64,000 nucleotides of DNA from Escherichia phage ECO07P1. Of this stretch, positions 6,855 to 63,502 are shown piece by piece. The stretch lies in the sequence record OP172784. The stretch is one strand, 5' to 3'. The stretch's first letter is position 1. Each line of letters opens with the position of its first letter. The notes under the pieces are model-generated. The model did no database searches, was not told where the DNA came from, and saw only the letters and a list, made by a program, of their open reading frames with translations. The position numbers and the translations under genes are program-made.

Positions 6855-7039
6855 AAGCTTACTTAGAAACAATTGTCATTGCTCAAAAAGAAGGTGGAGA
6901 TGTTTCTACTTCTGTATCACAAGTCATTCTCGAATTTGTAGATGCATATGCTTATAATAAATTTACAGAAACATTTGATGCCTATGAAAAAGGACCAAAG
7001 TTTGAAATATATCGTACTCTCTTACCACTAGATTACTAA
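6851..7039 (+). CDS. hypothetical protein (62 aa)
   Basis: ORF start overlaps ligase stop (ATGA); followed by hairpin 7038-7054. Confidence 0.4.
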   Translation: MKAYLETIVIAQKEGGDVSTSVSQVILEFVDAYAYNKFTETFDAYEKGPKFEIYRTLLPLDY

Positions 7040-7059
7040 AGGCCTTCGGGCCTTTAATT
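7038..7059 (+). terminator. hairpin terminator between ligase-side small ORF and alt
   Basis: AAAGGCC-TTCG-GGCCTTT then AATTTT. Confidence 0.5.
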
Positions 7060-7060
7060 T

Positions 7061-7068
7061 TATAAATA
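7061..7068 (+). promoter_or_regulatory. late promoter TATAAATA upstream of alt
   Basis: Exact TATAAATA about 20 nt upstream of the alt start. Confidence 0.6.
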
Positions 7069-7088: not shown

Positions 7089-9185
7089 ATGATGGAACTT
7101 ATTACAGAATTATTTGACGAAGATACTACTCTTCCGATTACAAACTTAAATCCAAAGAAGAAAATACCGCAAATTTTTTCAGTTCATGTTGATGACGCAA
7201 TTGAACAACCAGGCTTTCGTTTATGTACCTATACATCTGGAGGTGATACTAATCGCGATTTAAAAATGGGCGATAAAATGATGCATATTGTTCCTTTTAC
7301 ATTAACTGCTAAAGGTTCAATTGCTAAATTAAAAGGTCTCGGTCCAAGCCCAATTAATTATATCAATTCAGTTTTTACTGTTGCAATGCAGACGATGCGT
7401 CAGTATAAAATTGATGCCTGTATGCTCCGTATTCTTAAGTCTAAAACTGCTGGTCAAGCTCGACAAATTCAAGTTATTGCTGATAGACTTATCCGTAGTC
7501 GTTCGGGTGGCAGATACGTCCTTCTTAAGGAACTCTGGGATTACGATAAAAAGTATGCATATATTCTTATACATCGCAAAAATGTATCACTAGAAGACAT
7601 TCCAGGAGTTCCGGAAATTAGCACCGAGCTCTTTACTAAAGTTGAATCGAAGGTCGGTGATGTTTATATCAATAAAGATACTGGAGCTCAAGTAACTAAA
7701 AATGAGGCAATTGCTGCATCTATTGCGCAAGAAAATGATAAACGTTCTGACCAAGCTGTAATCGTTAAAGTTAAAATTTCCCGTAGAGCAATTGCACAAA
7801 GTCAATCATTAGAATCTTCTAGATTTGAAAGCGAATTATTCCAGAAGTATGAATCTACCGCAGCTAATTTCAATAAACCTGCTACCGCTCCTTTAATTCC
7901 CGAAGCAGAAGAAATGAAACTTGGAATTAATTCATTGGCTTCTAAAACTAAGGCAGCAAAAATTATTGCTGAAGGAACTGCAGATGAACTTCACTATGAT
8001 TATAAATTCTTTTCAAAAAGTGAGGTTAATGAAGTTTCTGAAAAAATTAAAGATGTAATTTTTAACGCGATCAAAAATGAACCGACTACTTCAATAAAAT
8101 GTTTAGAGAAGTATGCAGCAGCTATTAATAAATTCTTTGAAGAATATAAAGATACTTGGCTTGATAAACATAATAAAACCCGTAAAGGACAGCCAGATGA
8201 AGTCTGGGAAGAAATAACTAAAAATTCCTGGAACGCAGCAAAAACTAAATTCCTCAAACGAATGATTTATAGCTTTTCTGGAATTGGTGCAGGTCCAATG
8301 ATTGATATTACTATTGCCCGTGATGGTTCTAAATATACTCCATCACAAAAGCGCGGCATTAGAGAGTATTGTGGTTCAGGATATACTGACATCAATAATC
8401 TTCTTTTAGGACGCTACAATCCAGAACGATATGATGTAATGAGTGAAAAAGAAATTGAATCTGCTATAAATAACTTAGATTCAGCTTTTGAAAATGGTGA
8501 CCGTATACCGGAAGGCATTACAGTTTATCGTGCACAAAGTATGACTGCTCCTATATACGAAGCACTAGTTAAAAATAAAGTGTTCTATTTCAGAAATTTT
8601 GTATCTACTTCTTTAACTCCTATCATTTTTGGGCGTTTTGGAATTACACATGCTGGTATTGGTCTTTTAGAACCAGAAGCTCGTAATGAATTAACAGTTG
8701 ATAAAAATGAAGAAGGAATAACTATTAATCCAAACGAAATAAGAGCGTATAAAGAAAATCCTGAATACGTTAAAGTTCAAATAGGATGGGCAATTGATGG
8801 AGCTCATAAAGTTAATGTTGTATATCCAGGAAGTCTCGGAATAGCAACAGAAGCTGAAGTTATTCTACCACGCGGATTGATGGTCAAAGTTAATAAAATA
8901 ACTGATGCTTCTAATAACGACGGAACAACATCTAATAATACAAAACTCATTCAAGCTGAAGTTATGACTACGGAAGAACTCACCGAATCAGTCATTTATG
9001 ACGGTGACCGTCTAATGGAAACTGGTGAAGTAGTTGCAATGACAGGTGATATTGAAATAGAAGACAGAGTTGACTTTGCATCATTTGTTTCATCAAATGT
9101 TAAACAAAAAGTAGAATCATCTCTTGGAATTATTGCGTCTTGCATAGATATTACAAACATGCCTTACAAGTTCGTTCAAGGATAA
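7089..9185 (+). CDS. alt: Alt-like ADP-ribosyltransferase (virion-packaged), copy 1
   Basis: 698 aa; N-terminus M(M)ELITELFDEDTTLPITN matches T4 Alt from memory; ART-type R / STS / ExE elements (YRAQS.., FVSTS, EAEVILPRG); late promoter TATAAATA at 7061-7068. Confidence 0.85.
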   Translation: MMELITELFDEDTTLPITNLNPKKKIPQIFSVHVDDAIEQPGFRLCTYTSGGDTNRDLKMGDKMMHIVPFTLTAKGSIAKLKGLGPSPINYINSVFTVAMQTMRQYKIDACMLRILKSKTAGQARQIQVIADRLIRSRSGGRYVLLKELWDYDKKYAYILIHRKNVSLEDIPGVPEISTELFTKVESKVGDVYINKDTGAQVTKNEAIAASIAQENDKRSDQAVIVKVKISRRAIAQSQSLESSRFESELFQKYESTAANFNKPATAPLIPEAEEMKLGINSLASKTKAAKIIAEGTADELHYDYKFFSKSEVNEVSEKIKDVIFNAIKNEPTTSIKCLEKYAAAINKFFEEYKDTWLDKHNKTRKGQPDEVWEEITKNSWNAAKTKFLKRMIYSFSGIGAGPMIDITIARDGSKYTPSQKRGIREYCGSGYTDINNLLLGRYNPERYDVMSEKEIESAINNLDSAFENGDRIPEGITVYRAQSMTAPIYEALVKNKVFYFRNFVSTSLTPIIFGRFGITHAGIGLLEPEARNELTVDKNEEGITINPNEIRAYKENPEYVKVQIGWAIDGAHKVNVVYPGSLGIATEAEVILPRGLMVKVNKITDASNNDGTTSNNTKLIQAEVMTTEELTESVIYDGDRLMETGEVVAMTGDIEIEDRVDFASFVSSNVKQKVESSLGIIASCIDITNMPYKFVQG

Positions 9186-9188
9186 ATC

Positions 9189-11246
9189 ATGGAACTTATT
9201 ACAGAATTATTTGACGGCGCTTCGGCGCCGGTTGTTAACTTAAATCCTAAGCATAAAATACCTCAAATTTTCGCTATTCAAGCCGGTGAAGAAAGTGTGC
9301 TTCCTGGATTTAGATTTTGTACATACACCTCTGGCGGTGATACAAATAAAAACGTTAAGCCAGGCGATAAAATGATGCATATCGTAATGATAGGTGTTAA
9401 TGAGAAATTATCATTAGTTAAACTTAAAAACTTGGGTGGAAATCCAATTGGTGTTATTAATGCGGTTTTTGATACTGCTCTTCAAACAATGAAACAGTAT
9501 AAAATTGACGCATGCCTATTCCGCGTACTAAAAAGTAAAACAAATGGCGCAGCTCGTCAAATGCAAGTTATTGCTGACCGTTTAGTACGTACTAAAGGAG
9601 CAGGTCGATATGTTCTTTTAAAGGAAATCTGGGATTATGATAAAAAGTATGCATATATTATGGTTTACCGTAAAAATGCCAATTTAGAAGACATTCCAGG
9701 TGTACCTCCTATTTCAACTGAGTTATTCACAAAAGTTGAATCAAAGGTTGGTGATGTTTATGTAGATGTTAAAACAGGTAATGCTGTTCCTAAAGCTGTT
9801 GCTGTTGCTGCTTCTATTGCTTTAGAAAATGATAAGCGCACGGATCAAGCTGTTATTCAGAAAACTAAAATTAGTCGTCGATTAGCAGCGCAAGCTCAAT
9901 ATTCTACTGTAGATGCTTCGCTTCAGGGTGATAGCTTCGCTGCCAAGAAATATCAAGAGTTTGAATCTAAAGTTCCGGTATATAAAGCAGAAGGACCAAT
10001 GAACTCTGGCGTTATTCAGATTGGTTCAAACTTCAGCAAAGGAGCTATCGGTGGTATGAGAAGTGCTTCTCGTTTTAAATCTAGCGATTATGAACTAGAA
10101 AACTTCCGAAATCATATTGCATTGGCTCATGCGCGTTTACGTGATCCATCTATCAAGTTACAGAGCGATATAACATATCAAGGTTCTCAGGAATATTTAA
10201 AGAATAAAGAATTTTTTGATTATAAAACTGATAAAATTTTAAGCGATCTTGCTGACATTAATATTTCTAATAGCTTTGATGTTATTAAGAAAATCGTCAA
10301 TGATTTAGTTAAAGGTTCTAAAGCCACGCCAGACGAAAAGATAGCTATTGTTCAATTTGTCATGAATGGCATTTATAAATTGATTAATGAGTCTGCTTCT
10401 CAAGCGTATGAATATGCAAGTACCGAAGTACCCCCAAAAGGATTAACTCAGGCTGAGTCTGATGTAATTGAAGATTATTGTGCAGATTCATATGTTGAAA
10501 TGAACTCGTTCCTCTTGGGTAAACCAGATTCTACCCGTGAAGAATACATGGAACGAGCTATTAAACACATCGAGACGCTGGATTCTGCATTCGCCAAAGG
10601 ATCAGTTCTTCCTCCAGGAACTACGCTTTATCGTGGACAAGAAGTTACTTTTAAAACTTTACGCCATAATATTGAAAATAAAATGTTCTATTTCAAGAAC
10701 TTCGTATCAACATCGCTTAAACCAAATATCTTCGGTGAGTATGGTAAAAACTATATGGCCCTAGATGATTCTGGTGCAGTATTTTCTGGTGAAGGAGAAG
10801 GTTCAGTTGATGCTGAAGATTTAATGCATATGGGCAGTCACTCTGCTTACGCGAATGAAGATGCTGAAACTAGCGTGGGTATGGTAATTAAAGGGGCTGA
10901 GCGAATCAAAGTTATCGTTCCAGGTCATTTATCAGGATTTCCATCAGAAGCTGAAGTTATTCTACCGCGCGGAATTTTACTGAAGATTAATAAAGTAAGT
11001 ACGTACTTTATGAAAGAAACTGCTTATAACAAGTATCTAATAGAAGGTACAATCGTTCCTCCTTCTGAACAATTAGAGGAATCGGTATATGATGGCGACC
11101 ATCTAATGGAAACTGGCGAAGTTCGTCCAATGGCTGGATTTAATCAATTCCTTGTAGAAGAATCAAAAGAAGAGGAAAACGAAGTTTCTCAAATCTTAGC
11201 TTCTTTGGTTAACATTAACGGAATGTCTAAAAAGTTCAAAATGTAG
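9189..11246 (+). CDS. Alt-like ADP-ribosyltransferase paralog, copy 2
   Basis: 685 aa; N-terminus and C-terminal ART core (YRGQE.., FVSTS, EAEVILPRG) conserved with copy 1, central region divergent; starts 3 nt after copy 1 stop. Confidence 0.8.
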   Translation: MELITELFDGASAPVVNLNPKHKIPQIFAIQAGEESVLPGFRFCTYTSGGDTNKNVKPGDKMMHIVMIGVNEKLSLVKLKNLGGNPIGVINAVFDTALQTMKQYKIDACLFRVLKSKTNGAARQMQVIADRLVRTKGAGRYVLLKEIWDYDKKYAYIMVYRKNANLEDIPGVPPISTELFTKVESKVGDVYVDVKTGNAVPKAVAVAASIALENDKRTDQAVIQKTKISRRLAAQAQYSTVDASLQGDSFAAKKYQEFESKVPVYKAEGPMNSGVIQIGSNFSKGAIGGMRSASRFKSSDYELENFRNHIALAHARLRDPSIKLQSDITYQGSQEYLKNKEFFDYKTDKILSDLADINISNSFDVIKKIVNDLVKGSKATPDEKIAIVQFVMNGIYKLINESASQAYEYASTEVPPKGLTQAESDVIEDYCADSYVEMNSFLLGKPDSTREEYMERAIKHIETLDSAFAKGSVLPPGTTLYRGQEVTFKTLRHNIENKMFYFKNFVSTSLKPNIFGEYGKNYMALDDSGAVFSGEGEGSVDAEDLMHMGSHSAYANEDAETSVGMVIKGAERIKVIVPGHLSGFPSEAEVILPRGILLKINKVSTYFMKETAYNKYLIEGTIVPPSEQLEESVYDGDHLMETGEVRPMAGFNQFLVEESKEEENEVSQILASLVNINGMSKKFKM

Positions 11247-11301
11247 TTTACAAGTTCCTCATGTTGTGTTATAGTAGTCTTACTGACATAACATGAGGAA
11301 C
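11246..11301 (+). promoter_or_regulatory. early promoter (GTTTAC, TGt-TATAGT) nested inside a 12-bp inverted repeat whose 3' arm contains the RBS of ORF 11307
   Basis: GTTTAC 11246-11251; -10 11270-11275; arms GTTCCTCATGTT (11255-11266) and AACATGAGGAAC (11290-11301). Confidence 0.55.
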
Positions 11302-11306
11302 ACAAA

Positions 11307-11597
11307 ATGAAATCTTCTTTGCGCTTTTTAGGTCAAGAACTTGTAGTTGAAGGCGTTATTCCTGCTGATAACGCTTTTAATGAAGCAGTTTACGATGAAT
11401 TTATCAAAATTTTTGGAACAGATAAAAAGTTCGGAATTTTTCCTTCTGAAAATTTTTCAAAGCCAGAACAGACTGAAAGTATTTTTCAGGGTGTGGTAAC
11501 AGGTAAATTTGAGTCAGAAGCTCCGGTAAAAATTGAAGTTTATATTGAAGACAGTTTAGTTGCTTCAGTTGCTGCTTTCATTTCATTCCGTAAATAA
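11307..11597 (+). CDS. hypothetical protein (96 aa)
   Basis: ORF with RBS GAGGAACACAAAATG; own early promoter cassette; hairpin terminator at 11602-11623. Confidence 0.45.
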   Translation: MKSSLRFLGQELVVEGVIPADNAFNEAVYDEFIKIFGTDKKFGIFPSENFSKPEQTESIFQGVVTGKFESEAPVKIEVYIEDSLVASVAAFISFRK

Positions 11598-11601
11598 AAA
11601 C

Positions 11602-11623
11602 ATGGGGACCGAAAGGTCCCCAT
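11602..11623. terminator. bidirectional terminator hairpin between convergent genes
   Basis: ATGGGGACC-GAAA-GGTCCCCAT flanked by A-run upstream and T-rich downstream; sits between ORF 11307 (+) and gp54 (-). Confidence 0.65.
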
Positions 11624-55152: not shown

Positions 55153-55726
55153 AAGATTTCTCCATTATACGTATAAGGTCGTTCATAAATGAATTGATGT
55201 CTGATTTTGCTATTATTTTTATTTGACGAAGTTTTTCATTTTCAAGAACAGCAGCTTCATACGTATCGACCGCAGCAAGTGCTCCTTCATATTGAGGATA
55301 TTTTCTGGCTTTATCGCCTTTGTCATACCAAACATATGGGTTATCATCATATGATATTAAATTATAAAATTTTTCACCGTTCTCATTCACATGATATACT
55401 ATTTGGTCTCCACCTATGTTTTTGTATTTTTGTATAGATGCTTGATAAGCAGCTTCTTGCGAAGTAATCCATCCATAATACGGATCATAATTATCATTAC
55501 ACATCAATAAAACCCAATACAACTGCGGATTTCCATATATAGCATTTGCTAATTCTTCCGGGCGTGGTGAACCTTTAATATAATAAGTACGTAAGCGATA
55601 TCCCGCAAGAGCGCGTTTGAAATAGTCTTTATAGTTTCTAAAAATATCTGTCATAGGAATAGTCGGCGCGTTTTTATTCACCGTTTTGGCCGCATATTCA
55701 ATCGGATCAAAAAATGTAAAGAGCAT
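55136..55726 (-). CDS. 53: baseplate wedge protein gp53
   Basis: 196 aa; late promoter at 55755-55762. Confidence 0.8.
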   Translation of the reverse strand: MLFTFFDPIEYAAKTVNKNAPTIPMTDIFRNYKDYFKRALAGYRLRTYYIKGSPRPEELANAIYGNPQLYWVLLMCNDNYDPYYGWITSQEAAYQASIQKYKNIGGDQIVYHVNENGEKFYNLISYDDNPYVWYDKGDKARKYPQYEGALAAVDTYEAAVLENEKLRQIKIIAKSDINSFMNDLIRIMEKSYGNDK

Positions 55727-63164: not shown

Positions 63165-63200
63165 GTTTACATCCCCGTTCTTCCATGGTACTATACAACT
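63165..63200 (+). promoter_or_regulatory. early promoter with A/T-rich upstream element
   Basis: TTTTTAAAAAATTTTTT tract, GTTTAC 63165-63170, GG-TACTAT -10, leader TATCAACTACTGA. Confidence 0.55.
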
Positions 63201-63238
63201 ATCAACTACTGATACAGAAAAACAACTTGGAGAATGAA

Positions 63239-63502
63239 ATGGATAATTACGGCGAACTGTTCAACTTCTTTATGAAATGCGTTTCAGAAGATTTCGGTCG
63301 TACAGTGAATGATATTAAAGTCATCGGTCCTGACCATCCGATGTTTGAAACTTACGCAGTAATGGGTAATGAAGACGGTCAGTGGTATACTGTAAAAGTT
63401 GTGATTAATATGTTCACTGCTGAAGGTTATGTTAAACTGTCTTCTAAAGTTTACCACGATAACGATGAAATCGCAGAAGAATATTTCAATAATATGAAAT
63501 AA
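63239..63502 (+). CDS. hypothetical early protein (87 aa from Met at MDNYGELF)
   Basis: RBS GGAGAATGAAATG; early promoter cassette at 63165-63192; track ORF start at 63185 lies inside the promoter and is unlikely. Confidence 0.45.
   Translation: MDNYGELFNFFMKCVSEDFGRTVNDIKVIGPDHPMFETYAVMGNEDGQWYTVKVVINMFTAEGYVKLSSKVYHDNDEIAEEYFNNMK

Follow-up and report, generated by a model that had tools for sequence, protein, structure and literature searches.

How can a small gene at the 3' end of a late operon be restricted to early expression? The question is raised by the alt/alt.-3 junction in a 64,000-nucleotide stretch of Escherichia phage ECO07P1 (OP172784; hereafter the window), where an early-type promoter stands between alt paralog 2 and alt.-3, and where the spacer of this promoter is complementary to the ribosome-binding site (RBS) of the gene that follows. 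An earlier note on this DNA had proposed that, in RNA reading through from the alt genes, the two complementary arms would form a hairpin occluding the RBS, while RNA started at the promoter itself would lack the 5' arm. Our computational and comparative analysis supports this interpretation, through thermodynamics, controls, genus-wide retention of the hairpin, convergence in a second lineage and the expression classes of the T4 genes. On balance, we consider it probable, though far from certain, that the hairpin keeps alt.-3 from being translated on read-through RNA and has this as its function.

A hairpin over the Shine-Dalgarno sequence of alt.-3

The earlier note had described a 12-bp inverted repeat, with arms at 11255-11266 and 11290-11301. 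The 3' arm, AACATGAGGAAC, is found where it was placed, whereas the 5' arm is actually GTTCCTCATGTT at 11254-11265, one base to the left. As had been stated, the repeat brackets the -10 element, since TATAGT (11270-11275) sits between both arms, and the 3' arm contains the Shine-Dalgarno (SD) sequence of the open reading frame (ORF) at 11307, with GAGGA (11295-11299) located 7 nt ahead of the ATG. A repeat search widened the arms to 16 nt (11254-11269 and 11286-11301; 94% complementary), and in the RNA fold of 11254-11301 a stem of 17 bp is followed by a 2-nt bulge and topped by an apical stem of 4 bp. This hairpin alone reaches -26.4 kcal/mol (z -7.66), with none of 200 shuffled sequences folding as well. 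Moreover, the long RNA (11240-11320) folds at -27.9 kcal/mol (z -5.02), against merely -2.2 kcal/mol (z -0.1) for RNA beginning at 11282. Folding also indicates that an outer helix (Table 1) can enclose the alt.-3 start codon in read-through RNA; this helix is probably melted during translation of alt paralog 2, because its 5' strand lies within that coding sequence.

An Rfam search of the hairpin returned no family at gathering score, just sub-threshold generic matches of the miRNA-precursor type (E 0.05-0.7). An intrinsic terminator at this position was rejected, given that the terminator scan was silent, that there is no U-tract (3' flank ACACAAAAUGAAAUC) and that the stem is A/U-rich. Likewise, RegB cleavage was discarded, since the SD is GAGGAA without the GGAG of RegB specificity (PMC3014915). 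The second match per genome in the 61-nt junction search proved to be the repeat hitting its own reverse complement, and not a second locus.

Accessibility of the translation start

The accessibility of the translation initiation region (TIR) was expressed as an opening cost, i.e., the ensemble free energy needed to force positions -14 to +5 unpaired. For read-through RNA the computed cost was 18-19 kcal/mol, so that the RBS is predicted to be hidden, as the earlier note had argued; for RNA from 11282, without the 5' arm, it was 2.2 kcal/mol, leaving the RBS free. Controls in which the upstream part was shuffled gave 3.9 ± 1.8 kcal/mol, and those in which it was swapped for natural segments of the window gave 4.0 ± 1.6 kcal/mol; in neither set did any of the 150 reach the observed value. 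The corresponding T4 read-through RNA requires 13.4 kcal/mol, a value reached by 0 of 300 controls. Furthermore, the alt.-3 start ranks first in occlusion among the 81 predicted gene starts of the window (18.0 kcal/mol; mean 6.6, sd 3.2; next 13.8).

The next most occluded gene starts were 57737 (+), 55726 (-) and 47271 (-), with 13.8, 13.4 and 13.1 kcal/mol, respectively. The start at 55726 (-), of a gene with a 196-aa product, has TATAAATA just upstream on its strand (55762-55755), possibly a late-promoter arrangement of the e/soc type.

A general rule by which all early promoters hide the downstream SD was rejected, as the pattern was seen in only two to three of nine promoter-gene pairs of the window. 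A weaker but similar architecture occurs at 2289-2350, where the spacer UUCCUUUGU of an early-type promoter (GTTTACAGTATAGTTCCTTTGTGATAGTAT) pairs with the SD region ACAAAGGAG of ORF 2346-2678 (110 aa, gene 30.x region); the TIR opening is 10.4 kcal/mol in the long RNA vs. 0.3 in the short one, the fold reaches -20.5 kcal/mol (z -2.95), and the same promoter is retained by T4 and by two IMG/VR contigs. At 63165-63241, the early-type promoter GTTTACATCCCCGTTCTTCCATGGTACTAT has a pyrimidine-rich, anti-SD-like spacer, and ORF 63239 shows a TIR opening of 8.2 (long RNA) vs. 4.5 kcal/mol (short RNA). Spacers resembling CCUCC or CUCC were also present in several early promoters of related phages.

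The nested early-type promoter

T4 early promoters are a class defined by UP, -35, TGn and -10 elements (PMC2988021). At the alt.-3 junction, the -35 GTTTAC(A), the TGn extended -10, TAnnnT and an A-rich upstream region (11229-11241) are all present (Table 1). The promoter scan reported TTTACA-17-TATAGT with TG (10/12 matches), and the pattern GTTTAC-N16-19-TANNNT occurs 10 times in the window, always on the + strand, vs. 3.3 expected. The identical 30 nt are annotated as a promoter in Tequatrovirus phage Lutter (MT682714); the T4 GenBank records examined have no promoter features annotated.

The 5' arm of the hairpin fills the -35/-10 spacer, TGn included. Transcription likely starts at the A at 11282, a purine 7 nt past the -10, and any start from this -10 (about 11277-11284) falls 3' of the whole 5' arm (11254-11270). 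Since every such start lies beyond the arm, a start upstream of 11255 would be hard to reconcile with the promoter geometry.

Beyond Tequatrovirus, we sampled Mosigvirus, Dhakavirus, Marfavirus, Kanagawavirus, Karamvirus, Gelderlandvirus, Kagamiyamavirus, and Ursula-like and VR25-like phages, and a DNA-pattern scan of IMG/VR for alt.-3 promoter loci yielded 33 loci. GTTTAC-N18-TAnnnT, with the same 18-nt spacing, was present in every lineage sampled, and the distance between the alt stop and the alt.-3 ATG was 57-60 nt in all of them. In Mosigvirus genomes (e.g., NC_024124.2, 4537-4576), an unannotated site elsewhere matches window positions 11264-11306 (-10, leader and SD; 86% over 43 nt), which may be a related promoter-leader cassette ahead of another gene.

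Gene order and expected read-through transcripts

The window is a Tequatrovirus: over the 801 nt around the junction, identity is 100% with Escherichia phage ECO07P3 and 90-99% with some 500 Tequatrovirus (T4-like) genomes. T4 keeps alt paralog 2 merely as fragments, annotated alt.-1 and alt.-2, while the gene is full-length in the window (Table 1).

A late-promoter motif precedes the alt genes, and the terminator scan predicted no terminator from this promoter until 11602-11623, i.e., none before alt.-3; therefore, long RNAs bringing the 5' arm into alt.-3 are to be expected, and we infer that read-through RNA from the late promoter at 7061-7068 reaches the gene. A second TATAAATA motif within alt paralog 1 (8465-8472, +) may be due to chance or may be an internal late start also yielding RNA with the 5' arm; the motif is absent between 8472 and 17883 of the window.

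Table 1. Coordinates of the alt/alt.-3 junction, its neighbourhood and related elements (window positions unless a sequence label beginning with L is given).
Feature	Position	Strand	Description
Late-promoter motif TATAAATA	7061-7068	+	21 nt 5' of the alt paralog 1 ATG, directly past terminator 7037-7056
alt paralog 1	7089-9185	+	Alt-like ADP-ribosyltransferase, 698 aa, full-length
alt paralog 2	9189-11246	+	Alt-like ADP-ribosyltransferase, 685 aa; stop TAG 11244-11246, 7 nt 5' of the hairpin
Outer helix, 5' strand	11227-11240	+	Pairs with 11318-11331; inside the alt paralog 2 coding sequence
T4 early-type sigma-70 promoter	11246-11275	+	-35 GTTTAC 11246-11251 (GTTTACA to 11252), 18-nt spacer, TGn (TGT) 11267-11269, -10 TATAGT 11270-11275
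Hairpin 5' arm	11254-11270	+	Anti-SD CCUC 11257-11260; entirely in the promoter spacer, 5' of any usable start
Apical 4-bp stem and tetraloop	11273-11284	+	Pairs 11273-11276 / 11281-11284; overlaps the -10 and the predicted transcription start
Hairpin 3' arm	11285-11301	+	Holds SD GAGGA 11295-11299; 11286-11301 invariant, 11285 variable (16 Tequatrovirus sequences)
alt.-3	11307-11597	+	96 aa; homologue of T4 alt.-3; Pfam DUF5498, phrog_1739; gene proposed as regulated
Outer helix, 3' strand	11318-11331	+	Codons 4-9 of alt.-3
Bidirectional intrinsic terminator	11602-11623	.	Between convergent alt.-3 and gene 54; terminator scan
GGA-loop hairpin	L009-L016 about 2445-2470 (e.g., L010 2451-2464); also L025-L055		Homologous to window 11254-11270
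Ursula-like extra GGA-loop hairpin	L016 285-300; L026 about 7895-7910	- (L026)	Between the alt paralogs

Expression of the T4 homologues

Time-resolved omics of T4 classify alt.-3 as early at both the RNA and the protein level, alt, which the text counts among the late genes, as middle RNA and late protein, and alt.-1 and alt.-2 as middle RNAs, with neither protein detected (PMC9697503). In RNA-seq at 5 min of motA-am infection, alt.-3 was up 2.38-fold, like many early genes, and alt was unchanged (1.07-fold); at this time alt RNA was abundant, with 49178 reads over 2049 nt vs. 4552 over 291 nt for alt.-3 (PMC6024815). Accordingly, the early expression and the MotA independence of the early promoter class are seen for alt.-3 in data from T4 rather than from this phage. 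An estimate of read-through from the 5-min gradient over alt.-1/alt.-2 was dropped: part of alt is duplicated in these remnants, and multi-mapping reads are probably lost there. Regarding the protein, Alt.-3 is non-essential in T4, and the wild type neither triggers nor blocks the CmdTAC defence, whereas variants with a C-terminal extension prevent CmdA from being degraded and allow T4 to evade CmdTAC (PMC11618068).

Retention of the hairpin within Tequatrovirus

The 499 full-length matches to the 61-nt junction were sampled at each level of identity, from 100% down to 88.5%. All 12 distinct Tequatrovirus haplotypes had an opening cost of 12.8-18.7 kcal/mol in the long RNA vs. 1.3-2.6 kcal/mol in the short RNA, and 11286-11301 of the 3' arm was the same in 16/16 sequences. 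Among the 5'-arm variants, 11260 C/U and 11261 A/G keep pairing via G.U, and 11257 C/A and 11265 U/G are single disruptive changes. As judged from these alignments, the genus retains a strong hairpin, from which purifying selection on each pair does not follow.

A second arm against the same translation start

The SD context AACAUGAGGA is widely conserved across genera, and an arm complementary to it is found in Tequatrovirus only. In Kosakonia phage 305 (Kanagawavirus) and three related IMG/VR contigs, the same spacer carries a distinct 5' arm, GAAUGAACG, GAAUGAA(C/U)G, that pairs with AUG-CGUUCAUUC, i.e., the start codon and codons 2-4 of alt.-3. This hairpin folds at -25.6 kcal/mol (z -4.65), and the opening cost is 11.8-17.9 kcal/mol in the long RNA vs. 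4.2-4.5 in the short RNA, with 0/300 controls reaching the observed value. Marfa has the same N-terminal codons without the arm, which indicates that the Kanagawavirus arm evolved against a pre-existing constrained sequence. That two independent arms both target the TIR, and not the freely variable leader, is in our opinion the strongest argument for TIR occlusion as a selected property.

GGA-loop hairpins in the remaining genera

In most other Tevenvirinae genera, the alt.-3 promoter spacer carries a small hairpin of -3.8 to -8.8 kcal/mol whose loop contains GGA, in the context ACA-N-GGA-N-GU (e.g., CCACAAGGAUGUGG, GCACAUGGAUGUGU, AUCCACAUGGAAGUGGAU and GCACAAGGAAGUGC); its stem sequence and register differ by lineage. 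This hairpin is missing exactly in the two lineages whose spacer pairs with the TIR: the window spacer has no GGA, and the motif regular expression was negative in all Tequatrovirus and Kanagawavirus haplotypes. Each of the 34 distinct haplotypes has either a TIR-pairing arm or a GGA-loop hairpin, never both and never neither. The relaxed motif [AC]CA-N-GGA-N-G[TG] was present in 19/19 haplotypes outside Tequatrovirus and Kanagawavirus, with the strict ACA...GT form fitting all of those lineages except the Melville-like one (CCAUGGAAGG). Outside the two TIR-pairing lineages, and again with the Melville-like exception, the motif falls precisely at the alt.-3 spacer; the motif is rare, with a single occurrence in the 64-kb window vs. 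1.4 expected. Among 40 distinct early-type promoters in the sequences compared, only alt.-3 promoters had stable GGA-loop spacer hairpins. In Ursula-like phages, a further hairpin of this type (UUCACAUGGAUGUGAA / UUCACAGGGACGUGAA) separates the stop of alt paralog 1 from the SD of alt paralog 2, which follows at a distance of 17 nt, and the lack of a promoter at this second hairpin points to a role at the RNA level.

The CsrA consensus obtained by SELEX is RUACARGGAUGU, with GGA in a hairpin loop, and two sites can be bridged over a range of 10-63 nt (PMC7652899). The phage motif agrees with this consensus, and its distance to the GGA of the SD is 32-37 nt, inside this range. In this context, silencing of alt.-3 on long RNA may be a common function, for which most genera would use a protein and two would use direct pairing. 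In its full form, this idea would make the alt/alt.-3 junction a Tevenvirinae-wide, conserved post-transcriptional gate against alt.-3 expression from read-through (middle and late) RNA, with two interchangeable builds inside the early-promoter spacer, TIR pairing (in Tequatrovirus and, independently, in Kanagawavirus) and a high-affinity GGA hairpin of the CsrA type that, together with the GGA of the SD, would recruit host CsrA or a phage RNA-binding protein to no RNA but the long one; we regard this wider proposal as rather unlikely. If it were true, host CsrA would be a temporal regulator of T4-like phage genes, and protein-mediated and RNA-only repression would replace each other at one site.

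L034 (IMGVR_UViG_2974666281_000001) has a GGA-loop hairpin together with an anti-SD GUUCCU between the -10 and the predicted start, with a TIR opening of 8.3-8.9 kcal/mol in the long RNA vs. 1.9 in the short one, and similar short anti-SD segments lie near the predicted start in EcS1 (CCUCA) and IME08 (CCUUA).

Weighing the function of the hairpin

The switch we propose would work as follows. Transcription from the early promoter, starting at about 11282, would give an alt.-3 mRNA whose 25-nt leader is unstructured and whose GAGGA SD is free, so that Alt.-3 would be made in the first minutes of infection. Upstream RNAs, which would arise at the late promoter (7061) and by read-through of the 7037-7056 terminator, would cross the two alt paralogs and include the promoter spacer in their sequence. 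There, 11254-11270 would pair with 11285-11301 and lock the SD in a hairpin of about -27 kcal/mol, the outer helix could additionally cover the start codon, and alt.-3 on this RNA would be essentially untranslatable. The net effect would be to restrict Alt.-3 synthesis to the early period despite co-transcription with the abundant late alt message. Where transcription starts, whether and in what quantity this phage makes read-through RNA, and how translation is affected are the parts of this model that we infer.

Several observations weigh against this proposal. Nowhere in the region is variation greater than in the 5' arm, where 5/17 columns vary vs. none in 11286-11301, and a covariation test within Tequatrovirus, whose sequences are highly similar, found no two-sided compensatory changes. 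The perfect 12-bp repeat is a minority haplotype, with an exact 61-nt junction match in just 11 of about 500 records; the majority state (8/11 haplotypes, including T4) has the U/C change at 11256, which produces a C.A mismatch at base pair 3, and haplotype REP4 has two mismatches and a hairpin of -15.2 kcal/mol. Outside the genus, eight other lineages show weak TIR occlusion (3-9 kcal/mol), IME08 being indistinguishable from controls, so that alt.-3 has no conserved need of a TIR block. The frame-shifted remnant alt.-2 of T4 has its stop codon, TAG, within the -10 TATAGT and thereby within the hairpin (T4 123,065-123,099), so that its ribosomes, if alt.-2 is translated, would unwind the 5' arm. 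In addition, being classed as early in the T4 proteome is no proof that Alt.-3 is not also made late, and in the available literature we found no experimental mapping of transcription starts, structure probing or translation data for this site, either in this phage or in T4.

Some of these points would fit a hairpin without selected function, in which a single template-switch (quasipalindrome) mutation copied the SD region, reversed, into a freely variable promoter spacer that is now drifting. The 5' arm is indeed the most polymorphic part, most haplotypes are mismatched without compensatory change, other genera manage without TIR occlusion, and the perfect repeat is rare. Nevertheless, all sampled Tequatrovirus haplotypes, down to 88.5% junction identity, hold an occlusion of at least 12 kcal/mol, an independent lineage made a different arm against another part of the same TIR, all 34 haplotypes carry a TIR arm or a GGA-loop hairpin, and the occlusion ranks 1/81 in the window, which together leave an origin by mutation and drift alone distinctly unlikely. 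It is also unlikely that the hairpin serves as a 3'-end element of the alt message, blocking 3' exonucleases or being cut as an RNase III-type site directly past the alt stop, with SD occlusion being incidental. Every lineage has some hairpin within a few nt of the alt stop, even where the TIR is untouched, and the stems of Tequatrovirus (17+4 bp) and Kanagawavirus (13+6+5 bp) amount to about two helical turns, near the size that RNase III needs; however, neither a U-tract nor a predicted terminator accompanies the hairpin, a pure stabiliser could use the unconstrained leader 11276-11292, yet two independent lineages pair the TIR (SD in one, AUG and codons in the other), and a simple barrier leaves the conserved ACA-N-GGA-N-GU loop of the small hairpins unexplained.

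Translational coupling, in which the hairpin on read-through RNA would have to be melted by a ribosome completing the upstream ORF before alt.-3 could be translated, appears quite improbable. The alt paralog 2 stop lies 7 nt from the hairpin, ribosome coverage to 11258-11260 would cut the TIR opening to 7.1-3.3 kcal/mol, and the T4 alt.-2 ORF ends within the hairpin. From published ribosome footprints, however, a ribosome terminating at the alt stop (11244-11246) reaches to about 11253-11256, and with this coverage the opening cost is still 13-19 kcal/mol; moreover, stop and start codons are 60 nt apart, Alt.-3 is early vs. late Alt, and Alt.-2 protein is undetected in T4 (PMC9697503). We give very little weight to a role of the DNA itself, as a palindromic operator or structural element modulating the early promoter: the 5' arm takes up the -35/-10 spacer, the -10 stands between the arms of the repeat, and the shut-off of T4 early promoters is incompletely understood (PMC3014915), but the arms are 20-30 bp apart and asymmetric about the promoter, the small hairpins move register by up to 4 nt relative to the -35 and -10, and in Ursula-like phages a related hairpin stands ahead of the alt paralog 2 SD without a promoter, which argues for RNA. 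Jointly, these four explanations hold the remainder of the probability beside the translational block of alt.-3 on read-through RNA.

If such a block exists, it would explain why Alt.-3 is an early protein despite its position downstream of late alt, and would show a T4-like route to early-only expression of a small gene at the 3' end of a late operon. It would also be relevant for work on Alt.-3, whose extended variants act in CmdTAC escape (PMC11618068). The comparative pattern forms a testable evolutionary story, in which arms pairing with the TIR arose twice independently while the other genera have a CsrA-like hairpin in this position, and provides an entry to the question of whether phage mRNAs are targets of host CsrA.

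Comparison with known systems

The GGA-loop hairpins of the other genera resemble two-site CsrA/RsmE operators of the glgC type (PMC7652899), being short, with ACA...GU flanks and another GGA located in the SD. Tequatroviruses, the window included, differ in having direct base pairing instead of a GGA hairpin, and the likeness to CsrA targets is one of sequence motif only. Regarding RBS-sequestering hairpins, one was reportedly described for mobE of phage Aeh1 by Gibb and Edgell in 2009; as is proposed for alt.-3, a hairpin in a T4-related phage hides the RBS of a small accessory gene placed among differently timed genes, while the gene, the phage and the promoter class are different. The stem of T4 gene 25 brings SD and AUG closer and activates translation, and is not known to be transcript-specific. 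The likeness lies in a conserved stem at the TIR of a T-even gene (PMC3014915).

The closest relatives are the T4 genes e, soc, 49 and I-TevI, in which SD and/or AUG are locked in a helix on long, upstream-initiated transcripts, and in which the hairpin of gene e cuts lysozyme synthesis about 100-fold (PMC3014915). In these genes, a promoter located in or beside the 5' strand gives transcripts that lack this strand and are translated, purely in cis and with no protein factor, as is predicted here. A T4 hairpin sequestering the TIR and relieved by a nested promoter is said to have been reported by McPheeters et al. in 1986. The earlier note had invoked several T4 genes with dual early/late expression as a precedent, which holds for the mechanism and not for the timing. 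In e, soc, 49 and I-TevI, the nested promoter is the late TATAAATA (gp55) type, the RNA kept silent is the early or middle one, and expression comes on late; in alt.-3, by computation only, the nested promoter is of the early sigma-70 type with the 5' arm inside its -35/-10 spacer, the silent RNA is the late or read-through one, and the gene would be on early and off late. With an early nested promoter and a silenced late RNA, alt.-3 would join the same kind with reversed timing, rather than represent a separate mechanism. In brief, if the reading is right, alt.-3 would be the mirror image of a textbook phage mechanism, in which a nested early promoter escapes the hairpin that silences late co-transcripts.

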